Shown one piece after another: positions 1,422-17,892 of a DNA stretch of 20,624 bases. Both the position numbers and the translations under genes were made by a program. Under the pieces are notes generated by a model that did no database searches, had not been told where the DNA came from, and saw nothing but the letters and a program-made list of their open reading frames with translations. The stretch's first letter is position 1; each line of letters opens with the position of its first letter. Source of the DNA: a virus (taxonomy: Duplodnaviria; Heunggongvirae; Uroviricota; Caudoviricetes). The stretch lies in the IMG/VR virus record IMGVR_UViG_2563366839_000008; one strand, given 5' to 3'.

Positions 1422-3893
1422 TTAAAAATCAGCCTGATTCGGGATCAGTTTTTGCCAGATAACTGAAACGTATTTTGCCTGGTAACGGGCGTCATCAAGT
1501 GCATTATGGCGCTCACCTTCGAATGGAATAGCCGTTCTGGCATCGAAGTCTATGGCTTTCCCCAGCTCAACGATTGTGCGTACATCGCGATCGTTGTAGT
1601 AACGCCACGGGCAGGGGATCCCCTGCCGTTCGTATGAACGGCGCAAAATCGTGTTGTCGAAGTTGGCTCCATTTCCCCAGACCTGAACAAAAAATTCGCC
1701 GGAGTTTTCGTCGATAAATTCCCGCAATTGCAGCAGTGCATCATCTAACGGGATTTCATCGGTCAGAATGGCAGATTGCGCCTCCCGTGATTGCTTAAGC
1801 CACCATTTAATGGTGCCACGATCAATGACTCCGCCAGCAGTATCCATATCGATGGTCTTACTAAATTCCGGCCCCATATCTCCGGTTTGCGGATCGAAAA
1901 ATATTGCACCTATTGAGATAAGCGGGGCATCGGGATTTTTTCCCATGGTTTCAAGGTTGATCATCATGTGGTGCCACATTCTGCTGGTGGATGTGATAAC
2001 GTGATGACCGTTCATCGCAATTAAGGGATCTGCCGTCTCGCCAGTTTCACTATCGCTGGCGTGATCCTGAGCGCTACCAGCATTCTCCTTGTGTGGATGT
2101 TCAGCGCCTTCCATTTCCTTCGGATCATTTTCCTGAACTTCAACCTGATTCTCTTCATCGAATGTTTCCTGGTATGTTGCGTCGCCCATTACCGCGCCAC
2201 AATCAGGGCAGTTGCCACCACCGCTTTGACCGCAGGCGGTGCAGACTTTTTCCGGTTCCTGTTGCGCTACTGGCTCAGGTTGTTTCGTTTCTGGCTCGTT
2301 TTGTAACGCATTTGGGCTGTTTTGTTCCGCTTTCTGGCCGTTCTGTTCCGTTTCTTGTTGGTTCTGATTCACTGAATCGCGGGTTTCAATCCCCTTCACC
2401 CATTTCGGATCATTCGGGTCGCTAATCCCTGCAACAAATTCACCACGTGATACAGCAAGCAACTTATTGGCGTCAGGCTGGCTGATATTGGCTGCCTGCA
2501 TAATTTTGTTTACTTCGTCAGCGGTAACTTTTACCGGCTCTGGTTGTGCGATCGTGTCAGATGCACCAGTATTTTGTTGTGAACCTGAGTATGTACTGTT
2601 TTTGCGGGCGAAATATTCTTCTTTCGTGATTTCAGTAGCCCCGGCAGCCAGCGCCTTATCCAGACCAGAAAGTTTGTTTGCGCGACCGTATTTTTCGCCA
2701 TCCTTGTCGGTGAAGAGGAAGTAGAACGGCCCTTCACGCTCTACAGATGGTTCGACTTCCACTTTGCATTCGGTTTTTTCGTTGTCCGGAATTGCCGTTT
2801 CCACTGCATCAGTTTCTGGTACTGGCGACGAGAGAGTATCAGTTGCGCTCTGATTTCTTCCTTCATCTTCAAACACGCCCTTTGTAGTCAGGTATTCAGT
2901 AATGTATTTGTTCAGTGCCACAGGGTCTTTGTGAATGTCGATCGGACGTTCACGGACAAGGCCAAAAATAGTCTGGCGGTCGTAGCGAAGGGCATCAGGC
3001 TGTTTGCGCATTGATGCCGAGATACGCTTCCAGTCTTCGCGGTCGTTGTCGATAACTTCATTTTTTGCCCAGCGATGGATGCTGCCGTCAATGTTTCCGG
3101 CATCCACATCACCAGGCCAGAGAGCGTAGGCCAGTTCGTCATCCAGTGTTTTCCATGTCTGCTTGTATTCGCGATGAATGGCAGCAATGACCGGGCTGAT
3201 TTTTCCTGTTGAATTTTCACTGTGCTGTTGATTGGTTCTGGCGCGGGCGAGATCAACAACAGACGTGTATTTTCCGGTTTCCTTGCGTTCACCTTCGCGA
3301 CGTTTTTTCCAGATGCGCATCTCTGCCTGAATTTCGGGCCATTTGGCACCAGGCTTACATTTATGCTTAACCCACCCGATGGCATGCAGCTTAAGCTCCG
3401 GATACATGGCGTTAACTTCTGGCATTTTCATCAACGCTTCAACGATATGTCCGTCGAATGTTGCCATGTCTTCCTGCAACAATTCCTGTGCGCTAATAAC
3501 CATATCAACGGTGATGTTTTCACATGTGTCGAACTTAACCATGACAGCGTTCTGTACTTCAGGGGCCAGCTTGTCAAAAGTGACGTTCATCGGATCGGAT
3601 TCAGTCTCAACCGGGACAAAAGAAGCAGACTCCTCATCCCAGCGGTTTTCCTGCATATATTCAGCATCCCATGAATCGAGGGCAGGGCGGGGTATGCCAG
3701 GTTTATCCTCGCAGACAATAAATTTATAAGCGCAGTCCTGAGCAGCCGGATAATGTTCCAGGAACTGCCAGTGAAATTTTGCTCGAGCACGGCGTTCGTC
3801 GCCAACTTCAATGGCTGTGGCTACAGCCACAGCGCCTTCTTCCCTTGTTGCCAGTTCGTCAGGAATAGCGGCGCAAATAAAGACTTTACTCAT
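1422..3893 (-). CDS. Large early-left protein (YdfE / exodeoxyribonuclease VIII-like), 823 aa, with Q/E-rich linker, CxxC..CxxC zinc ribbon and C-terminal DEDDh-like 3'-5' exonuclease domain
   Basis: Long uninterrupted ORF. C-terminal motifs WGNGANFDNTIL (Exo II-like) and HNALDDARYQAKY (Exo III-like H-x-A-x-x-D-A); internal CTACG...CPDCG zinc ribbon. Sits at the ydfE position after dicB-ydfD. Function inferred from motifs and synteny. Confidence 0.8.
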   Translation of the reverse strand: MSKVFICAAIPDELATREEGAVAVATAIEVGDERRARAKFHWQFLEHYPAAQDCAYKFIVCEDKPGIPRPALDSWDAEYMQENRWDEESASFVPVETESDPMNVTFDKLAPEVQNAVMVKFDTCENITVDMVISAQELLQEDMATFDGHIVEALMKMPEVNAMYPELKLHAIGWVKHKCKPGAKWPEIQAEMRIWKKRREGERKETGKYTSVVDLARARTNQQHSENSTGKISPVIAAIHREYKQTWKTLDDELAYALWPGDVDAGNIDGSIHRWAKNEVIDNDREDWKRISASMRKQPDALRYDRQTIFGLVRERPIDIHKDPVALNKYITEYLTTKGVFEDEGRNQSATDTLSSPVPETDAVETAIPDNEKTECKVEVEPSVEREGPFYFLFTDKDGEKYGRANKLSGLDKALAAGATEITKEEYFARKNSTYSGSQQNTGASDTIAQPEPVKVTADEVNKIMQAANISQPDANKLLAVSRGEFVAGISDPNDPKWVKGIETRDSVNQNQQETEQNGQKAEQNSPNALQNEPETKQPEPVAQQEPEKVCTACGQSGGGNCPDCGAVMGDATYQETFDEENQVEVQENDPKEMEGAEHPHKENAGSAQDHASDSETGETADPLIAMNGHHVITSTSRMWHHMMINLETMGKNPDAPLISIGAIFFDPQTGDMGPEFSKTIDMDTAGGVIDRGTIKWWLKQSREAQSAILTDEIPLDDALLQLREFIDENSGEFFVQVWGNGANFDNTILRRSYERQGIPCPWRYYNDRDVRTIVELGKAIDFDARTAIPFEGERHNALDDARYQAKYVSVIWQKLIPNQADF

Positions 3894-11398: not shown

Positions 11399-11478
11399 CC
11401 TGGCCTGAAGCATTAACAACGGTAGGAATTGCGATGGCGGTGGCGCTGGTGGTGTATTCGATTTGCCGCTGGGGATAA
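11395..11478 (+). CDS. Possible 27-aa hydrophobic peptide
   Basis: Read from sequence: [31 protein letters not shown] overlap with the upstream stop, GGAGGA about 10 nt upstream. Too short to be confident. Confidence 0.3.
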
Positions 11479-11689
11479 AAACGGTTTGCGGGAAAAGGAG
11501 AGTTAAGTAGAATTGCAGCGGGTGCTTGAGGCTATCTGTCTCAGGCATGAACACCAAAAGGCAGATAGAGAAAAGCCCCAGTTAACATTACGCGTCCGGC
11601 AAGACGCTTAACATTAATCTGAGGCCATATCTATGCTCTACACACGTAGGTTAGCCTCTTACGTGCCGAAAGGCAAGGAGAAGCAGGCT

Positions 11690-11845
11690 ATGAAGCAGCA
11701 AAAGGCGATGCTAATCGCCCTGATCGTCATCTGTTTAACCGTCATTGTGACGGCACTGGTAACGAGGAAAGACCTCTGCGAGGTACGAATCCGAACCGGC
11801 CAGACGGAGGTCGCTGTCTTCACAGCTTACGAACCTGAGGAGTAA
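11690..11845 (+). CDS. hokD: Hok/Gef-family type I toxin (HokD/RelF-like), 51 aa
   Basis: Translation MKQQKAMLIALIVICLTVIVTALVTRKDLCEVRIRTGQTEVAVFTAYEPEE matches recalled HokD; SD AAGGAG 8 nt upstream. Structured leader at 11480-11689 and a 3' hairpin at 11853-11877. Confidence 0.85.
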   Translation: MKQQKAMLIALIVICLTVIVTALVTRKDLCEVRIRTGQTEVAVFTAYEPEE

Positions 11846-11913
11846 GAGACCCGGCGGGGGAGTAATCTCCCGCCACCTCTGATGTGCCAGGCATCCTCAA
11901 CGCACCCGCACTT

Positions 11914-11935
11914 AACCCGCTTCGGCGGGTTTTTG
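11914..11935 (+). terminator. Rho-independent terminator (hairpin CCCGC-TTCG-GCGGG plus T-tract) after hok
   Basis: AACCCGCTTCGGCGGGTTTTTG; the same 20 nt recur at 13749-13770. Confidence 0.6.
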
Positions 11936-11946
11936 CATTAGTCTGG

Positions 11947-11976
11947 TTGACAAAAATAGAAAAATGCGAAAATATG
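11947..11976 (+). promoter_or_regulatory. Candidate promoter of the two-gene cassette
   Basis: Consensus -35 TTGACA at 11947-11952 in an AT-rich stretch; the -10 is weak (AAATAT/AATATG). Low confidence. Confidence 0.3.
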
Positions 11977-12010
11977 TGGTTTACGAATTCTAAAAAAAGC
12001 GAAACTTGAA

Positions 12011-12661
12011 ATGAATGAAAATCAGTTAGCTCCTTGTTGGGAATTTCAACCTTATCTTGCTGAAAACTATGTTCGCCACTTGTTGGCGGAGATCGCTAAC
12101 GTACTTGAGCAGCTGTACTATCATAAGCACGCATTAGACAGCAACTGGTCTGAAGGTGTAAGGGCTTATGATTGGGTCAGAAATCATCTTATTCAAAATG
12201 AAGATGCAATTCCTGGCCTTGAGATGATTTCCAAGGGGTTGGACTATGTAGTTGCTTTAAATAAAGTTCCGCTACAATTTACCAAAGATTGCATTAATAA
12301 CCCCAAAAAGAAACATCGTCTGCGTCGAAATAAAGTAGAGTATGAGCAGCTCTCATTGTTTGGTGATGTTGAGGCTGAGCAAGATATTACATGGCGAGTC
12401 ATAGCTGAGCCTTTTTTATCCGAAGAGGGCGATGGTGAATTAGAGTCCACACTGCCTCGTTGGGAGGTAGCTCTTGTTGGATTTAATACTTATGGTGCTC
12501 AGATTAGTATAGTTTCTCATCAATCTACAGCATCGATGCCGCTTATGCCTCTTGATTATAACACACTCCCTGACGAAGCGGAGATTAATAAGGTGCCTCT
12601 TCGTCGGCGTACGAAGGATAAAGATTTGGATGTGAGCAGTGATGGAACATCAGGTGAATAA
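12011..12661 (+). CDS. Unknown protein, 216 aa; upstream partner of the HTH-metallopeptidase gene (candidate effector/toxin)
   Basis: AT-rich ORF with a weak SD, overlapping the downstream gene by 20 nt. No recognisable catalytic motif. Flanked by terminators. Confidence 0.65.
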   Translation: MNENQLAPCWEFQPYLAENYVRHLLAEIANVLEQLYYHKHALDSNWSEGVRAYDWVRNHLIQNEDAIPGLEMISKGLDYVVALNKVPLQFTKDCINNPKKKHRLRRNKVEYEQLSLFGDVEAEQDITWRVIAEPFLSEEGDGELESTLPRWEVALVGFNTYGAQISIVSHQSTASMPLMPLDYNTLPDEAEINKVPLRRRTKDKDLDVSSDGTSGE

Positions 12662-13745
12662 CTTCACTGAGTATCGGGGTGATAAGCTCAAACTAGCGAG
12701 AATGGCTGTTGGGCTTTCTTGTGAAGAGTTAGCCGAAAAAATTGGCAAGACAAAGCAATTCGTTAGCAAACTGGAGAAGGGGTGCAGGCCATCGGAGCAA
12801 TGTCTTGAGTTAATATCTTCAGCGCTTATGATTAAGTCCAGTTTTCTTTTTACTGAACGAAAATACGCTCTGGAAAGTGATGTCTGCCATTTTCGGAGTA
12901 AGAAGTCCAGGACTCAAACGCTGACTAATAGTGTATTGGCCAGGGCTGAGATTCTTAATATTATAATTTCTGCTGTTGAAGGTGAAATCGAATTTCCTGA
13001 CGTTAACATACCGGAGCACCCAGGGGCTGAATTACTTACTCCGAATGATATTGAGCGAGTGGCAGAAGATTGTCGCCGTGCCTGGAATTTAGGTCTTGGC
13101 CCTATATCATCAATGGTTAAATTGGCGGAGAGTTTAGGGGTAATCGTTGCGCATGTTACGGGAGTCGATGATCGTGTTGATGCTTTTACTGTTCACAATA
13201 ACAGGCCTGTTATCATCAGGAACAATGTTAAAAAAAGCATATGTAGATTTCGCTCTGATTTAGGTCATGAATTAGGGCATTTAGTAATGCATGAGGGCAT
13301 AACGACAGGTGATAAACTTACGGAATCACAAGCCGATCACTTTTCGAGCGCCTTATTAGTTCCCAGGTTATCTTTCATTAAAGAATTTCCACGAATACGA
13401 GGTAAGCAATTCGACTGGAATGCTCTGGTTGAATTTAAACTTAGATGGAAAATCAGCCTTAAAATGTGTATTTATCGAGCCAGCGCATTAGGCTTATTGA
13501 CCCAGGAACAGGCAAGAACTGGCTATATGCATCTTAATTCCAGAGGGTATACGAGAGTTGAACCTGGTGATGAACTTTTGCGCCCTGAAGAACCCGGCAT
13601 GCTGGCCGAGGCGATTGAAATGCTGGATGATGCAACCTGGCTAAGAATTCTTATGAAAACTGGCTTGAGCCAAGATTTAATTCGTGAGTTGTTCTCCATC
13701 AACAGACCTATTACAAATCCAAGAAATATTTTCCAGATTGTTTGA
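12642..13745 (+). CDS. XRE-family HTH fused to ImmA/IrrE-family zinc metallopeptidase (COG2856-like, HEXXH motif), 368 aa
   Basis: N-terminal HTH LKLARMAVGLSCEELAEKIGKTKQFVSKLEKG; central zinc-peptidase motif DLGHELGHLVMHE. ATG at 12642 (GTG at 12639) is coupled to the upstream gene. AT-rich. Confidence 0.8.
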   Translation: MEHQVNNFTEYRGDKLKLARMAVGLSCEELAEKIGKTKQFVSKLEKGCRPSEQCLELISSALMIKSSFLFTERKYALESDVCHFRSKKSRTQTLTNSVLARAEILNIIISAVEGEIEFPDVNIPEHPGAELLTPNDIERVAEDCRRAWNLGLGPISSMVKLAESLGVIVAHVTGVDDRVDAFTVHNNRPVIIRNNVKKSICRFRSDLGHELGHLVMHEGITTGDKLTESQADHFSSALLVPRLSFIKEFPRIRGKQFDWNALVEFKLRWKISLKMCIYRASALGLLTQEQARTGYMHLNSRGYTRVEPGDELLRPEEPGMLAEAIEMLDDATWLRILMKTGLSQDLIRELFSINRPITNPRNIFQIV

Positions 13746-13748
13746 GTA

Positions 13749-13776
13749 TACCCGCTTCGGCGGGTTTTTTGTTTTT
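13749..13776 (+). terminator. Rho-independent terminator, identical core to the one at 11914-11935
   Basis: TACCCGCTTCGGCGGGTTTTTTGTTTTT immediately after the metallopeptidase-fusion stop. Confidence 0.65.
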
Positions 13777-13854
13777 ATTTTCAACGTGTTTGAAGTTTTG
13801 GACGGTGCCAGAATAGAATCAAAAATACTTAAGTAGCGCGCAGGGAGAAGAGGG

Positions 13855-14076
13855 ATGGACCCCGAACAGGGGGAGTGCTATTTATCTGGAAGGATTCTGT
13901 TGATGAAAATCGAAGAATTACGTGAAATTTTTAGTGAAGATGGCCTCTATGCTGTGCGCGTTGAGAATGGGGGTATTACCTACACAGCGTTAATTCCTGA
14001 TGATCATGTAGTGTTATCTGTTGAGGCATTCATTGAATACTTGGAAAGACTCGGTTTCAAGGTAGTTCGGGAATAA
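13855..14076 (+). CDS. Hypothetical small protein (73 aa; 57 aa if started at ATG 13903)
   Basis: Two possible starts: 13855 preceded by GGGAGAAGAGGG, and 13903 with GGAAGGA 8 nt upstream. No domain recognised. Confidence 0.45.
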   Translation: MDPEQGECYLSGRILLMKIEELREIFSEDGLYAVRVENGGITYTALIPDDHVVLSVEAFIEYLERLGFKVVRE

Positions 14077-14136
14077 GTTATAATACGTGAGCCAGCCTGA
14101 ACAACTGGCAACCTGCTGCGCCAGCAGAGAAAACAG

Positions 14137-14409
14137 ATGGCGCACAAAACCAAATTTCACAATTCTGATACCGACCTTGCCATCCGGCATGAGCGGCGTT
14201 CACACGCATTTAAAACCGACTGGTACCAACACCCACCATGTACTGAAGAACAGGCCGAATGGCTGATTCATAACTACCGCAGACGTGGATATGAGTTTAG
14301 GAAAGCCCTCACCCTCGATTATCGTCACTGGATAATCTACGTCAGACTCCCTTATTCCGAACGCCCACCGCGTCCGTCCCGCACATTCCAGCAACGCATC
14401 TGGAGGTAA
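14137..14409 (+). CDS. Hypothetical basic protein, 90 aa
   Basis: ORF ending 2 nt before the ydfU-like start; Arg/His-rich; weak SD. Confidence 0.45.
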   Translation: MAHKTKFHNSDTDLAIRHERRSHAFKTDWYQHPPCTEEQAEWLIHNYRRRGYEFRKALTLDYRHWIIYVRLPYSERPPRPSRTFQQRIWR

Positions 14410-14410
14410 C

Positions 14411-15457
14411 GTGCGGGTATTACTTCGACCTGTTCTGGTACCGGAACTCGGGCTGGTGATCGTTAAGCCGGGCCGTGAATCCATGCCGGTATTCCACAAT
14501 ACCCGGGTACTGGTGGAGCCGGAACCGAAAAGCATGCGTAATCTGCCGTCCGGGGTCGTTCCTGCCGTTCGCCAGCCGCTGGTGGAAGACAAAACATTGC
14601 TGCCGTTTTTCAGTAACGCACGGGTAATTCGTGCTGCTGGTGGTGCTGGTGCATTGTCTGACTGGCTGTTGCGCAATATTAAATCCTGCCAGTGGCCACA
14701 CGGCGATTATCATCACAGCGAAACCGTTATTCACCGTTATGGTACCGGCGCAATGGTGTTGTGCTGGCACTGCGACAACCAGCTGCGTGACCAGACATCC
14801 GAATCACTCGAGCAACTTGCTCATCAAAACCTGTCAGCATGGATGATTGACGTCATCGGTCACGCAATAAGCGGTACGCAGGAGCGTGAATTATCTCTGG
14901 CTGAATTATCCTGGTGGGCGGTCCGCAATCAGGTGGCGGACGCGCTACCGGAAGCGGTATTACGTCGTTCGCTGGGGTTGCGTGCGGAAAAAATCCGCTC
15001 AATGTACCGTGAAAGCGACATCGTACCGGGAGAGCAGACCGCCACCAGCATACTGAAGCAGCGCACAAAAAATCTTGCGCCGCTGCCTCACGCCCACCAG
15101 CAAAACCCGCCACAGGAAGAGACGGTGGTCAGCATTGCCGTTGATCCTGAGTCTCCGGAATCTTTCATGAAACGACCTAAACGTCGCCGCTGGGTTAACG
15201 AGAAATACACACGCTGGGTGAAGACACAGCCGTGTGCGTGTTGTGGTAAGCCAGCCGACGATCCCCATCACCTGATTGGTCATGGTCAGGGCGGAATGGG
15301 GACAAAATCTCACGATATTTTCACGCTACCGCTGTGTCGGGAGCATCACAACGAGCTTCATGCGGATACCGTGGCATTTGAAGAGAAGTATGGTTCCCAG
15401 CTGGAGCTGATATTTCGTTTTATCGATCGTGCGCTGGCAATAGGCGTACTGGCGTAA
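14411..15457 (+). CDS. ydfU: YdfU-like protein (DUF968) with C-terminal HNH-like Cys/His motif
   Basis: 348 aa, GTG start after GGAGG. C-terminal CACCGKPADDPHHLIGHGQGG...CREHHNELH resembles an HNH/zinc-finger nuclease fold. Sits upstream of Q as in Qin-type prophages. Confidence 0.65.
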   Translation: MRVLLRPVLVPELGLVIVKPGRESMPVFHNTRVLVEPEPKSMRNLPSGVVPAVRQPLVEDKTLLPFFSNARVIRAAGGAGALSDWLLRNIKSCQWPHGDYHHSETVIHRYGTGAMVLCWHCDNQLRDQTSESLEQLAHQNLSAWMIDVIGHAISGTQERELSLAELSWWAVRNQVADALPEAVLRRSLGLRAEKIRSMYRESDIVPGEQTATSILKQRTKNLAPLPHAHQQNPPQEETVVSIAVDPESPESFMKRPKRRRWVNEKYTRWVKTQPCACCGKPADDPHHLIGHGQGGMGTKSHDIFTLPLCREHHNELHADTVAFEEKYGSQLELIFRFIDRALAIGVLA

Positions 15458-15470
15458 GTGGAGAACGAGC

Positions 15471-16223
15471 ATGAACCTTGAAGCCTTACCGAAATATTAC
15501 TCCCCAAAATCTCCAAAATTGAGCGATGACGCACCGGCGACAGGCTCTGGTGGTTTAACAATTACGGATGTAATGGCTGCGCAGGGGATGGTGCAGTCGA
15601 AAGCACCGCTTGGGTTTGCCTTATTCCTGGCAAAAGTTGGTGTTCAGGATCCTCAGTTTGCGATTGAAGGTCTGCTCAATTACGCGATGGCACTGGATAA
15701 CCCGACATTGAACAAATTGAGTGAAGAAACCCGGTTACAGATCATCCCTTACCTTGTGAATTTTGCCTTTGCTGATTATTCCAGGTCTGCGGCAAGTAAG
15801 GCTCGCTGTGAGCATTGTGCTGGTACTGGATTTCATAATGTATTGCGCGAAGTGGTGAAACACTCCAGAAGCGGGGAATCTGTTATCAAGGAAGAGTGGG
15901 TGAAGGAACTGTGTCAGCATTGTCATGGTAAGGGAGAAGTCAGCACAGCGTGCAGAGGGTGTAAGGGTAAAGGTATTGTCCTGGATGAAAAAAGAACCCG
16001 GCTTCATGGCACGCCTGTTTATAAGGTTTGTGGGCGTTGCAATGGAAACCGGTTTAGCCGTTTACCAACCACACTGGCGCGGCTTCATGTCCAGAAGCTG
16101 GTACCAGACCTGACGGATTATCAGTGGTACAAAGGATATGCAGATGTCATTGATAAACTGGTTACAAAGTGCTGGCAGGAAGAAGCATATGCAGAGATAC
16201 AATTGAGAAAGGTGACAAGATAA
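15471..16223 (+). CDS. Late-gene antitermination protein Q (phage 21/82 QuuQ-type), 250 aa
   Basis: SD GGAGAA upstream. Cys-rich zinc-binding region (CEHCAGTG...CQHCHGKGE...CRGCKGKG...CGRCNG). Followed by a promoter, a short leader and an intrinsic terminator, the classic PR'-qut-tR' layout. Confidence 0.8.
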   Translation: MNLEALPKYYSPKSPKLSDDAPATGSGGLTITDVMAAQGMVQSKAPLGFALFLAKVGVQDPQFAIEGLLNYAMALDNPTLNKLSEETRLQIIPYLVNFAFADYSRSAASKARCEHCAGTGFHNVLREVVKHSRSGESVIKEEWVKELCQHCHGKGEVSTACRGCKGKGIVLDEKRTRLHGTPVYKVCGRCNGNRFSRLPTTLARLHVQKLVPDLTDYQWYKGYADVIDKLVTKCWQEEAYAEIQLRKVTR

Positions 16224-16830: not shown

Positions 16831-17892
16831 ATGAAAAATACTGTAAAAATAAACAGTGTTGATTTAATCAACGCTGATTGCCTGCATTTTATTCAGTCCC
16901 TGCCTGATGATTCCATTGACCTGATTGTTACCGATCCGCCGTACTTCAAGGTGAAACCCAACGGCTGGGACAATCAGTGGAAAGGGGACGAAGATTACCT
17001 TAAGTGGCTGGACCACTGTCTGGCCCAGTTCTGGCGGGTGTTAAAACCTGCCGGAAGCCTTTACCTGTTCTGTGGGCATCGCCTGGCATCTGATATTGAG
17101 ATCATGATGCGTGAACGTTTCAACGTGCTTAACCATATCATCTGGGCGAAGCCGTCCGGACGTTGGAATGGGTGTAATAAAGAAAGTCTGCGCGCATATT
17201 TTCCTGCCACAGAGCGCGTTCTGTTTGCTGAACATTACCAGGGGCCATATCGCGGCAAAAGTGACGGCTATGTAGCAAAAGAAAGGGAACTCAAACAGCA
17301 CATAATGGCACCGCTGATATCGTATTTCAGGGATGCTCGTGCCGAACTGGGTATAACGGCAAAACAAATTGCCGAAGCCACAGGTAAGAAAAATATGGTT
17401 TCCCACTGGTTTGGTGCCAGTCAGTGGCAGTTGCCGAATGAGGCTGACTACCGGAAGTTACAGGCACTGTTTTCCCGTATAGCGGCAGAGAAGTTTCAGG
17501 AACAACAACTGGAACAACCACACCACCAGTTGGTGGCATCTTATGATTCACTGAATCGCAAATATTCTGAATTGCTGGATGAGTTTAAATCTCTCCGGCG
17601 CTATTTCTCCGTATCAGTCTCCGTGCCTTATACCGATGTCTGGATGCATAAACCCGTTCAGTTCTACCCGGGTAAACATCCGTGTGAGAAACCGGCGGAT
17701 ATGCTCAGGCAAATAATCAATGCCAGTAGTCGACCCGGCGATCTGGTTGCTGATTTCTTTATGGGATCCGGTTCCACAATAAAAGCAGCAATGGCGCTGG
17801 GGCGTCGGGCGTTAGGTGTTGAGCTTGAGACAGAGCGGTTTAATCAGACCATCCAGGAAATCAGTATGTTATCAGCAAATACAATTTTGTGA
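16831..17892 (+). CDS. Orphan phage DNA methyltransferase (amino-MTase, beta-class: DPPY motif IV N-terminal, FxGxG motif I C-terminal)
   Basis: Motif IV LIVTDPPY near the N-terminus and motif I DFFMGSGST near the C-terminus; internal HTH-like segment GITAKQIAEATGKK. No adjacent restriction endonuclease gene. Weak SD. Confidence 0.85.
   Translation: MKNTVKINSVDLINADCLHFIQSLPDDSIDLIVTDPPYFKVKPNGWDNQWKGDEDYLKWLDHCLAQFWRVLKPAGSLYLFCGHRLASDIEIMMRERFNVLNHIIWAKPSGRWNGCNKESLRAYFPATERVLFAEHYQGPYRGKSDGYVAKERELKQHIMAPLISYFRDARAELGITAKQIAEATGKKNMVSHWFGASQWQLPNEADYRKLQALFSRIAAEKFQEQQLEQPHHQLVASYDSLNRKYSELLDEFKSLRRYFSVSVSVPYTDVWMHKPVQFYPGKHPCEKPADMLRQIINASSRPGDLVADFFMGSGSTIKAAMALGRRALGVELETERFNQTIQEISMLSANTIL

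Follow-up and report, generated by a model that had tools for sequence, protein, structure and literature searches.

A Rosmer-type cassette between two identical terminator hairpins at a recurrent accessory hotspot behind hok in lambdoid prophages of Escherichia coli

RESULTS

Two identical terminators bracket a Rosmer-type cassette

The DNA analyzed here, hereafter the window, is a stretch of 20,624 nucleotides (nt) from a virus of the class Caudoviricetes (IMG/VR record IMGVR_UViG_2563366839_000008), in which a two-gene cassette, rmrT-rmrA (positions 11935-13769), follows directly on the terminator of a hok toxin gene and ends in a second, identical copy of that terminator. Comparison with related prophages revealed that sites devoid of the cassette keep a single terminator copy, that unrelated accessory genes lie between two copies at the same place in other prophages, and that mosaic segments switch exactly at the repeat. 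We favor, with a probability of about 0.6, the explanation that the cassette is a moron at an accessory hotspot behind hok, where the terminator acts both as an insulator and as a short-homology joint. The pattern is that of a recurrent exchange hotspot, not of a single insertion event.

The repeat, termed T, is the 20-mer ACCCGCTTCGGCGGGTTTTT, present on the + strand in exact copies at 11915-11934 (T1) and 13750-13769 (T2). These are its only matches in the window, even with up to three mismatches allowed, and a chance repeat was ruled out by a control in which 100 dinucleotide-preserving shuffles gave 0 matches. With a start-to-start spacing of 1835 nt, T is the longest direct repeat within 11500-14200 and the sole perfect one there. 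Both copies were recognized by an intrinsic-terminator scan, each consisting of a G+C-rich stem of 6-7 bp with five G-C pairs, a TTCG loop, and a run of 5-6 T downstream of a gene end, and their folding energies reached -15.1 and -10.9 kcal/mol for T1 and T2, respectively (z = -3.4 and -2.9 versus shuffled controls). Closed by a C-G pair, this loop corresponds to the c(UUCG)g tetraloop, which is very stable. Since T1 lies 69 nt past the hok stop codon, it is the predicted intrinsic terminator of the hok transcript; T2 begins 4 nt past the rmrA stop codon, is followed by TGTTTTTATTTT, and is the predicted intrinsic terminator of the cassette. Sequence identity between the surroundings of T1 and T2 ends sharply at the terminator edges, and the flanks share no extended homology. 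A longer hidden repeat ('GCATT..CTGGTTKACA' after T1, mirroring a B-type promoter) was considered and rejected, as in-register comparison of left and right copies at nine loci limited the identity to T itself, over 20-23 nt. The DNA between the copies has a G+C content of 0.39-0.45, as opposed to 0.50-0.58 in the flanks. An earlier note on this DNA, made from its letters alone, had described a 20-nt repeat bracketing an AT-rich cassette and had read its copies as terminator hairpins; the matches, base composition, terminator scan, and folding energies bear these observations out.

The cassette opens with a leader (11935-12010, + strand) that holds a -35-like box, TGGTTGACA, at 11944-11952 and a second box, TGGTTTACG, at 11977-11985. 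Downstream lies rmrT (12011-12661, +), encoding a putative Rosmer toxin of 216 amino acids (aa) that is matched by PADLOC (RmrT, PDLC03929, E = 4.6e-25) and gave no match in Pfam. The co-oriented rmrA (12642-13745, +) overlaps rmrT by 20 nt and encodes the predicted Rosmer antitoxin and regulator (PADLOC RmrA, 6e-105), in which an N-terminal XRE helix-turn-helix (HTH; Pfam HTH_3) is combined with a Peptidase_M78 (ImmA/IrrE) domain carrying the HEXXH-type motif HELGH. Its ATG start at 12642 agrees with RefSeq; the open reading frame (ORF) finder chose a GTG at 12639. Rosmer systems are toxin-antitoxin-type anti-phage defenses that pair an antitoxin made of an HTH and an ImmA-like protease with variable toxins (PMC10440598), and on its gene content, the cassette is identified as one of them, with its toxicity and protective effect predicted. 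Gene-content searches revealed no recombinase or transposase gene in the cassette (11935-13769), and no terminal inverted repeats were found in it.

Compared with a related cassette located elsewhere in E. coli (locus L231, described below), the leader of the window shows 92.6% identity, as opposed to 80% for rmrT and 79% for rmrA; conservation of the leader above that of the coding parts suggests a conserved promoter/operator. A TTGACA lies 12 nt past T1, and no good -10 element was found. The TGGTTGACA box also opens the cargoes of two other Rosmer variants found at the hok site (Rosmer-2 and Rosmer-3, below), often in two copies, and the repeated leader boxes are a candidate operator for the HTH domain of RmrA, overlapping the -35 element. 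Boxes of these two forms recur in the leaders of three different Rosmer cassettes, being located as given above in the window, directly 3' of T1 in L006 and L149, and at positions 1394, 1501, and 1534 of L231. Since the TGGTTGACA box travels with Rosmer cassettes, including that of L231, it belongs to the cargo and not to a duplicated target.

Sites without the cassette keep a single terminator

The region 11400-14300 was searched against 5,426 complete E. coli genomes, and in E. coli WP2-W18-CRE-03, it is 100% identical to the window. The hok flank was present in 4,948 of the 5,426 genomes and the full region in only 228; in many of the matches, both flanks are joined within approximately 630-690 bp, i.e., the cassette is absent. 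Places where hok is followed by the terminator number approximately 9,300, distributed over approximately 4,600 of the genomes.

A second survey covered 129 hok-anchored loci of IMG/VR, collected by a pattern consisting of the hok tail and the start of T, with the window and hand-picked loci included. For each of them, the distance to an anchor gene, orf90 (14137-14409, +, 90 aa in the window), was measured, and cargo and downstream module were classified; loci lacking the anchor were examined separately. Ninety-nine loci have a single T and no cargo, hok and T being joined straight to module A (rem type, 43 loci), B (orf90 type, 50 loci), C (3 loci), or F (3 loci). Module A is the native downstream segment of the window (13790-14076, +), with a promoter-like site at 13790-13819 and a rem-like ORF at 13855-14076, and it abuts the single T in the empty sites of relatives, where T1 is the sole copy kept. 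A cargo bracketed by two T copies was found in 24 of the 129 loci and a cargo without second T in 1 (L128); 1 locus is truncated, and 4 show no T match at the expected place after the hok tail. Two of the empty sites, L001 and L002, illustrate the rule, as their single T is followed by gtttttattttcaacg..., just as T2 is in the window, and L001 continues with the rem-like ORF, orf90, a DUF968 gene, and the antiterminator gene Q. Loci L003 to L006 hold other inserts, each between two T copies. All loci with an identified, untruncated cargo (24/24) carry the bracketing pair, with L128 as the exception, and only one cassette per site was seen among the loci surveyed. In L128, the loop of T1 is TCCG, and the 78-aa ORF that forms the cargo has no assigned function.

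Unrelated cargoes and downstream modules switch exactly at T

Six classes of cargo were found at the hok site, in combination with about seven downstream modules. Rosmer-1, the type found in the window, occurs in 237 complete E. coli genomes. Rosmer-2, found in phage Tritos, encodes an RmrA only 32% identical to that of the window, and Rosmer-3, present in 23 complete E. coli genomes, gives the best PADLOC match of all (5.5e-93 and 4e-201 for RmrT and RmrA, respectively). Two loci, L008 and L111, have upstream sequence resembling the end of the Tritos cargo and were rejected as Rosmer carriers, as they lack an RmrA homologue. A Phd-like gene with a Fic/Doc gene makes up the Phd/Doc class (120 complete E. 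coli genomes). The HTH+M78 class (L135 and L226; 1348 bp) encodes an HTH protein of 119 aa and an M78 peptidase of 158 aa with the HELGH motif; it gave no PADLOC system match, and the pair is a possible uncharacterized relative of Rosmer or of CapH/CapP regulatory logic. The same cargo also contains a small Cys-rich ORF of 60 aa. The lipoprotein class encodes a protein of 130 aa. T1 is degenerate in this class, and transcription of hok may there continue across the lipoprotein gene as far as T2. In none of the six classes did gene-content searches reveal a recombinase or transposase gene.

In every class, cargo-specific sequence begins directly after the T-run of T1 and ends directly before the ACCCGC of T2. 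When loci carrying the Doc or Rosmer-3 cargo served as queries, homology in the E. coli genomes sampled ended no more than 2 nt from the last base of T1, a breakpoint that held in 35 of the 38 hok-only rows of one query, the other query giving the same pattern. At the opposite end, Rosmer-1 is followed by module A in the window and by module B in L230, and Phd/Doc is followed by module C, D, E, or F, the switch falling exactly at T2; modules A, B, C, and F also directly follow hok and T in empty sites. Since the switches fall at T in all combinations seen, T is the boundary of mosaic segments. The loop variant of T2 (TTCG, TACG, or CTCG) tracks the cargo, with TACG in L230 and CTCG in Rosmer-2, and the end of its T-run (TTTTT versus TTTTG) tracks the downstream module, which is only suggestive, given the few polymorphisms, of a T2 that is chimeric between the two.

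The comparison with cassette-free relatives that the earlier note had proposed gave the outcome expected of an insertion, the 99 empty sites running from the hok tail through one T directly into the downstream sequence. The note had also held that unrelated cargo between the two copies might speak against insertion; such cargo exists, but its pattern fits insertion or exchange, with the switches falling exactly at T. Ubiquity of the repeat, another observation that it had regarded as unfavorable, turned out to depend on the scale considered: T recurs in about 100 unrelated viral contexts, but within this prophage family it is confined to the hok junction, as detailed in the next section.

The cassette and T also occur apart

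An 80%-identical, Rosmer-1-like cassette lies at another prophage place, without hok, in E. coli KL53 (NZ_CP030919.1; positions 1500-3490 of locus L231). It has the same leader as the window, starting at TGGTTGACAAAA, and ends in ACCCGCTATATGCGGGTTTTTT, which has the stem of T and another loop. The terminator upstream of it, AAAGCCTCTAAGTTAGAGGTTTTTT, is unrelated to T, and no T lies upstream. A T-like terminator therefore travels with the Rosmer-1 cargo, and only at the hok site do two identical copies bracket it. This cassette is followed by a DNA-methyltransferase fragment and then by a second T-like terminator, ACCCGCTACGGCGGGTTTTC, with the TACG loop variant also seen in T2 of L230; T-like hairpins may thus also lie at other joints between modules. 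No T-like hairpin was found in a distant Rosmer system of a Salmonella island, so that T is not a general feature of Rosmer systems; the idea that T is an intrinsic Rosmer part was rejected on this ground and because three other cargo types have T.

The exact 20-mer was found in at least 120 stretches of IMG/VR. Among the 124 matches listed, 18 follow a hok tail, 4 are cargo-end copies, and approximately 100 lie in unrelated viral contigs (loci in L007-L126) with a G+C content of 0.30-0.67. T is very often followed by TATTGCCYGGAG-N5-8-ATG, forming a terminator plus Shine-Dalgarno module (e.g., L014, L017, L018, L031, L039, L069, and L098), and where such a GGAG-ATG start follows T in these matches, the downstream proteins fall into 19 unrelated clusters. 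This unit resembles a convergent or widely shared intergenic module. Given its occurrence in about 100 unrelated viral contexts, T is generic, its presence alone being no proof of common descent, and it is probably a convergent, 'ideal' terminator. Within 1.29 Mb of hok-anchored prophage DNA, however, ACCCGC-N4-GCGGGT hairpins (up to one mismatch) are confined to the junction behind hok, except that 3 loci have a hairpin with a TCAG loop at one further site.

A search of genome contigs with RmrA returned a single, identical locus in E. albertii, and among phages, the RmrA homologues obtained by tblastn were all at most 35% identical and from other genera. The cassette also occurs, 99.9% identical, on two large, non-mobilizable E. 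coli plasmids (CP088590.1, 98355-100160; NZ_AP026904.1, 200275-202080), which suggests that a prophage or phage-plasmid segment is carried on these plasmids. In E. coli FDAARGOS_1249 (NZ_CP069459.1, 1256745-1259616), the Rosmer cassette is split by an insertion of the IS5 family, presumably inactivating it.

The hok/sok locus and the prophage backbone

Immediately upstream of T1, the window carries a hok/sok type I toxin-antitoxin locus, in which a Hok/Gef ORF is overlapped by a Sok antisense region. The sok/hok regulatory RNA region spans 11520-11695 (+; Rfam RF01794 sok, 117 bits, E = 3e-27), and a mok-like frame containing hokD lies at 11633-11845 (+; Pfam HOK_GEF, 2.9e-23; annotated as hokD in RefSeq relatives). 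The 51-aa Hok toxin is encoded at 11690-11845, as placed by its offset from T in L001.

On the other side, the rem-like ORF, orf90, a DUF968/HNH-like gene (14411-15457, +; Pfam DUF968, 4.8e-78), and the antiterminator gene Q (15471-16223, +; Pfam Antiterm Q, 6.7e-53) all lie downstream of T2 on the strand of the cassette; orf90, the DUF968 gene, and Q are conserved late-early genes, which the terminators would shield. Farther upstream in the window are a lambda-type integrase, a cI-like repressor, and replication genes, which place the site within the early-right (nin-like) region of a lambdoid prophage. The window further encodes, adjoining the integrase gene, an 823-aa protein with a C-terminal Rv2179c-like 3'-5' exonuclease domain (1422-3893, -) and, between Q and the lysis genes, a DNA methylase (16831-17892, +).

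DISCUSSION

From the arrangement of these sites, we infer a promoter, an insulating role for the terminators, and a pathway and direction of recombination. The cassette would be an autonomous unit of promoter, rmrT-rmrA, and terminator placed directly after the hokD terminator. T1 would end the hok mRNA, the cassette would be transcribed from its own promoter in the lysogen, and T2 would halt this lysogenic transcription before it reaches the rem-like ORF, orf90, DUF968, and Q on the same strand. During lytic growth, antiterminated early-right transcription would pass both T1 and T2; because it must pass T1 anyway, an identical second copy adds no requirement. Since each cargo unit is closed by T or a T-like hairpin and the resident site is closed by T as well, the shared 20-23 nt could serve as a short-homology crossover point. 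Red/RecET-type annealing or RecA would use T to add the cassette or to exchange it between sites with differing downstream modules, a cargo ending in T or a T-like hairpin could be joined to any module that follows hok and T, and recombination between T1 and T2 would delete the cargo, leaving a single-T empty site. Red and RecT-type enzymes are known to build lambdoid mosaics via short or diverged homology (PMC3945230, PMC2327257). The earlier note's proposal of insertion by recombination between terminator sequences agrees with the mosaic joints at T and with the one-T empty sites, which are observed, while the recombination step itself we infer.

Several points weigh against this explanation. 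To pair efficiently, Red-beta needs a segment of at least 23-27 bp and RecA one of at least 31-34 bp (PMC3945230, PMC2327257), and T, with 20-23 nt, is at or slightly under this published length; crossovers at the lower edge of the pairing length would be rare, which is acceptable over evolutionary time. The longer hok and orf90/DUF968 homologies could equally serve crossovers that move the cassette, and only the module-switching joints demand an event at T. Part of the identity between T copies could be convergent, the 20-mer being generic. A Pfam scan of ten of the larger ORFs of the window identified no Red/RecT-type annealase, and a consensus promoter scan made no call in the cassette leader. 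Among the loci surveyed, L128 (IMGVR_UViG_2880350357_000008) has no second T in the first approximately 940 nt past the hok tail, and T1 is degenerate at the lipoprotein-class loci L003, L005, L148, L172, L196, L202, and L223, where the 3' half of the stem is lost (GCGTTTTTTC / ACCCGCTTCGGCGTTTTTTC).

Recombination at T could also have proceeded by a Campbell-type single crossover instead of a double-crossover exchange, T1 and T2 recombining to excise a circle made of the cargo and one T, which then reintegrates into an empty single T. Although this sub-mechanism of the recombination model predicts the architecture that we observed, with unrelated cargoes, repeats consisting of T only, and one T in empty sites, we consider it unlikely, as 20 nt offers very little length for one reciprocal crossover, and the L231 cassette, which ends in a T-like terminator of its own and lacks T upstream, is more in keeping with a linear unit made up of promoter, genes, and terminator. 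Slightly less probable still is that T plays no role in recombination and that its identical copies arose by convergence, selection having favored a strong c(UUCG)g hairpin that shields Q from read-through. Any cargo ahead of Q needs a terminator, CCCGC/GCGGG stems are common among enterobacterial terminators, and the identical 20-mer does occur in the unrelated viral contexts described above, before at least 19 unrelated gene families. Six unrelated cargoes nonetheless all end in T precisely where T already sits, which makes convergence alone insufficient; moreover, T-like hairpins end essentially no other gene across the 1.29 Mb scanned in these prophages, the tail of T2 varies with the module behind it, the Rosmer homologue of the Salmonella island has no T, and the joints fall exactly at T in each combination.

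We regard as improbable the further idea that the hok terminator is a dedicated, integrase-free cassette-exchange site at which the hairpin is actively processed and the resulting ends are captured by annealases. Stalling of replication or transcription at the c(UUCG)g hairpin, or a DUF968/HNH-like or RusA nuclease, would have to make the ends, and phage annealases would then capture whatever DNA has this generic terminator at its end. Least probable of all is an enzyme-driven, site-specific insertion, in which a transposase, integrase, or homing nuclease cuts T and the target is duplicated. Insertion does recur at one precise point, it is a hairpin that is repeated, and a DUF968/HNHc_6-like gene lies approximately 0.6 kb downstream, but that gene also adjoins the many empty sites, none of the cargoes contains a recombinase or transposase gene or has terminal inverted repeats, and target-site duplications are not typically 20 nt long. 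The extent of the duplication also varies, T1 being truncated in the lipoprotein class. A transposon with target-site duplication was accordingly rejected, the repeat measuring 20-23 nt and one left copy being truncated; the lack of recombinase and inverted repeats, together with the degenerate T1, makes integron-type capture unlikely as well. An RNA-mediated (retro) insertion was discarded because the cargo opens with a promoter region and not with the 5' end of a transcript.

The preferred explanation, a moron whose terminator doubles as its joint, yields a simple rule for finding accessory and defense cargo in a very common type of E. coli prophage: whatever sits between two copies of the hok terminator. 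This rule flags several uncharacterized cargoes, namely, the 130-aa lipoprotein, the split HTH+M78 pair, the 78-aa ORF, and three divergent Rosmer variants. The site also offers a natural test case for the origin of lambdoid mosaic joints, by short-homology or by illegitimate recombination, given that the joint is pinned to 20-23 nt. The terminator of a cassette placed ahead of Q must halt transcription of that cassette and still let antiterminated polymerase through, and re-using the resident terminator would meet both needs. Were T a dedicated exchange site, terminator-to-terminator capture could even be a general way for phages to gain morons, since the 20-mer is widespread in unrelated phages.

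Among known systems, the closest likeness is to the morons of lambdoid phages, reportedly treated by Juhala et al. in 2000 and by Cumby, Davidson, and Maxwell in 2012. Like the morons of HK97 and HK022, the cassette is an extra transcription unit between genes that are adjacent in relatives, as in the 99 empty sites, with a leader that may hold its own promoter, its own 3' terminator (also in L231), an atypical G+C content, and a function that may benefit the lysogen, here defense or toxin-antitoxin. It differs in that its terminator is that of the upstream resident gene and bounds six unrelated morons at one site, which the definition of a moron neither demands nor predicts. The cassette likewise resembles Rosmer systems in being a two-gene operon in which a variable toxin precedes an antitoxin made of an HTH and an ImmA/IrrE-type M78 domain (PMC10440598), although the RmrT match of the window variant is moderate and its function predicted.

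In offering interchangeable defense and toxin-antitoxin cargo at a fixed place in the backbone, the hok site is comparable to the defense hotspots of P2 and P4 (PMC9122126) and to phage hyper-variability hotspots (bioRxiv 10.1101/2024.10.15.618418), with islands that terminators subdivide into small units. Conserved neighboring genes define those hotspots, whereas the boundary narrows here to a duplicated 20-nt terminator; in the literature searched, the coverage of which is incomplete, no description of a hok-terminator hotspot was found. The discovery of Rosmer (RmrT/RmrA) as anti-phage toxin-antitoxin systems is said to go back to Millman et al. in 2022. Integron cassettes are also promiscuous and end in a hairpin repeat at one platform, yet they are promoterless and depend on an integrase and an attI site, neither of which serves the hok site, where each cassette has its own leader or promoter region, T measures 20 nt as opposed to 57-141 nt for attC, and the sole integrase of the window is a lambda-type Int (1-1131), 11 kb away. 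Joints at a short sequence shared by otherwise unrelated modules are, finally, a feature of the lambdoid 'linker' or 'boundary' sequences and of relaxed recombination by Red (PMC2327257, PMC3945230), except that the linker is here a terminator, not a gene-end or ribosome-binding-site region, and falls slightly under the minimal pairing segment. Taken together, the hok site is a well-defined instance of known phenomena, i.e., moron, prophage hotspot, and linker-mediated mosaicism, and not a new type of system.

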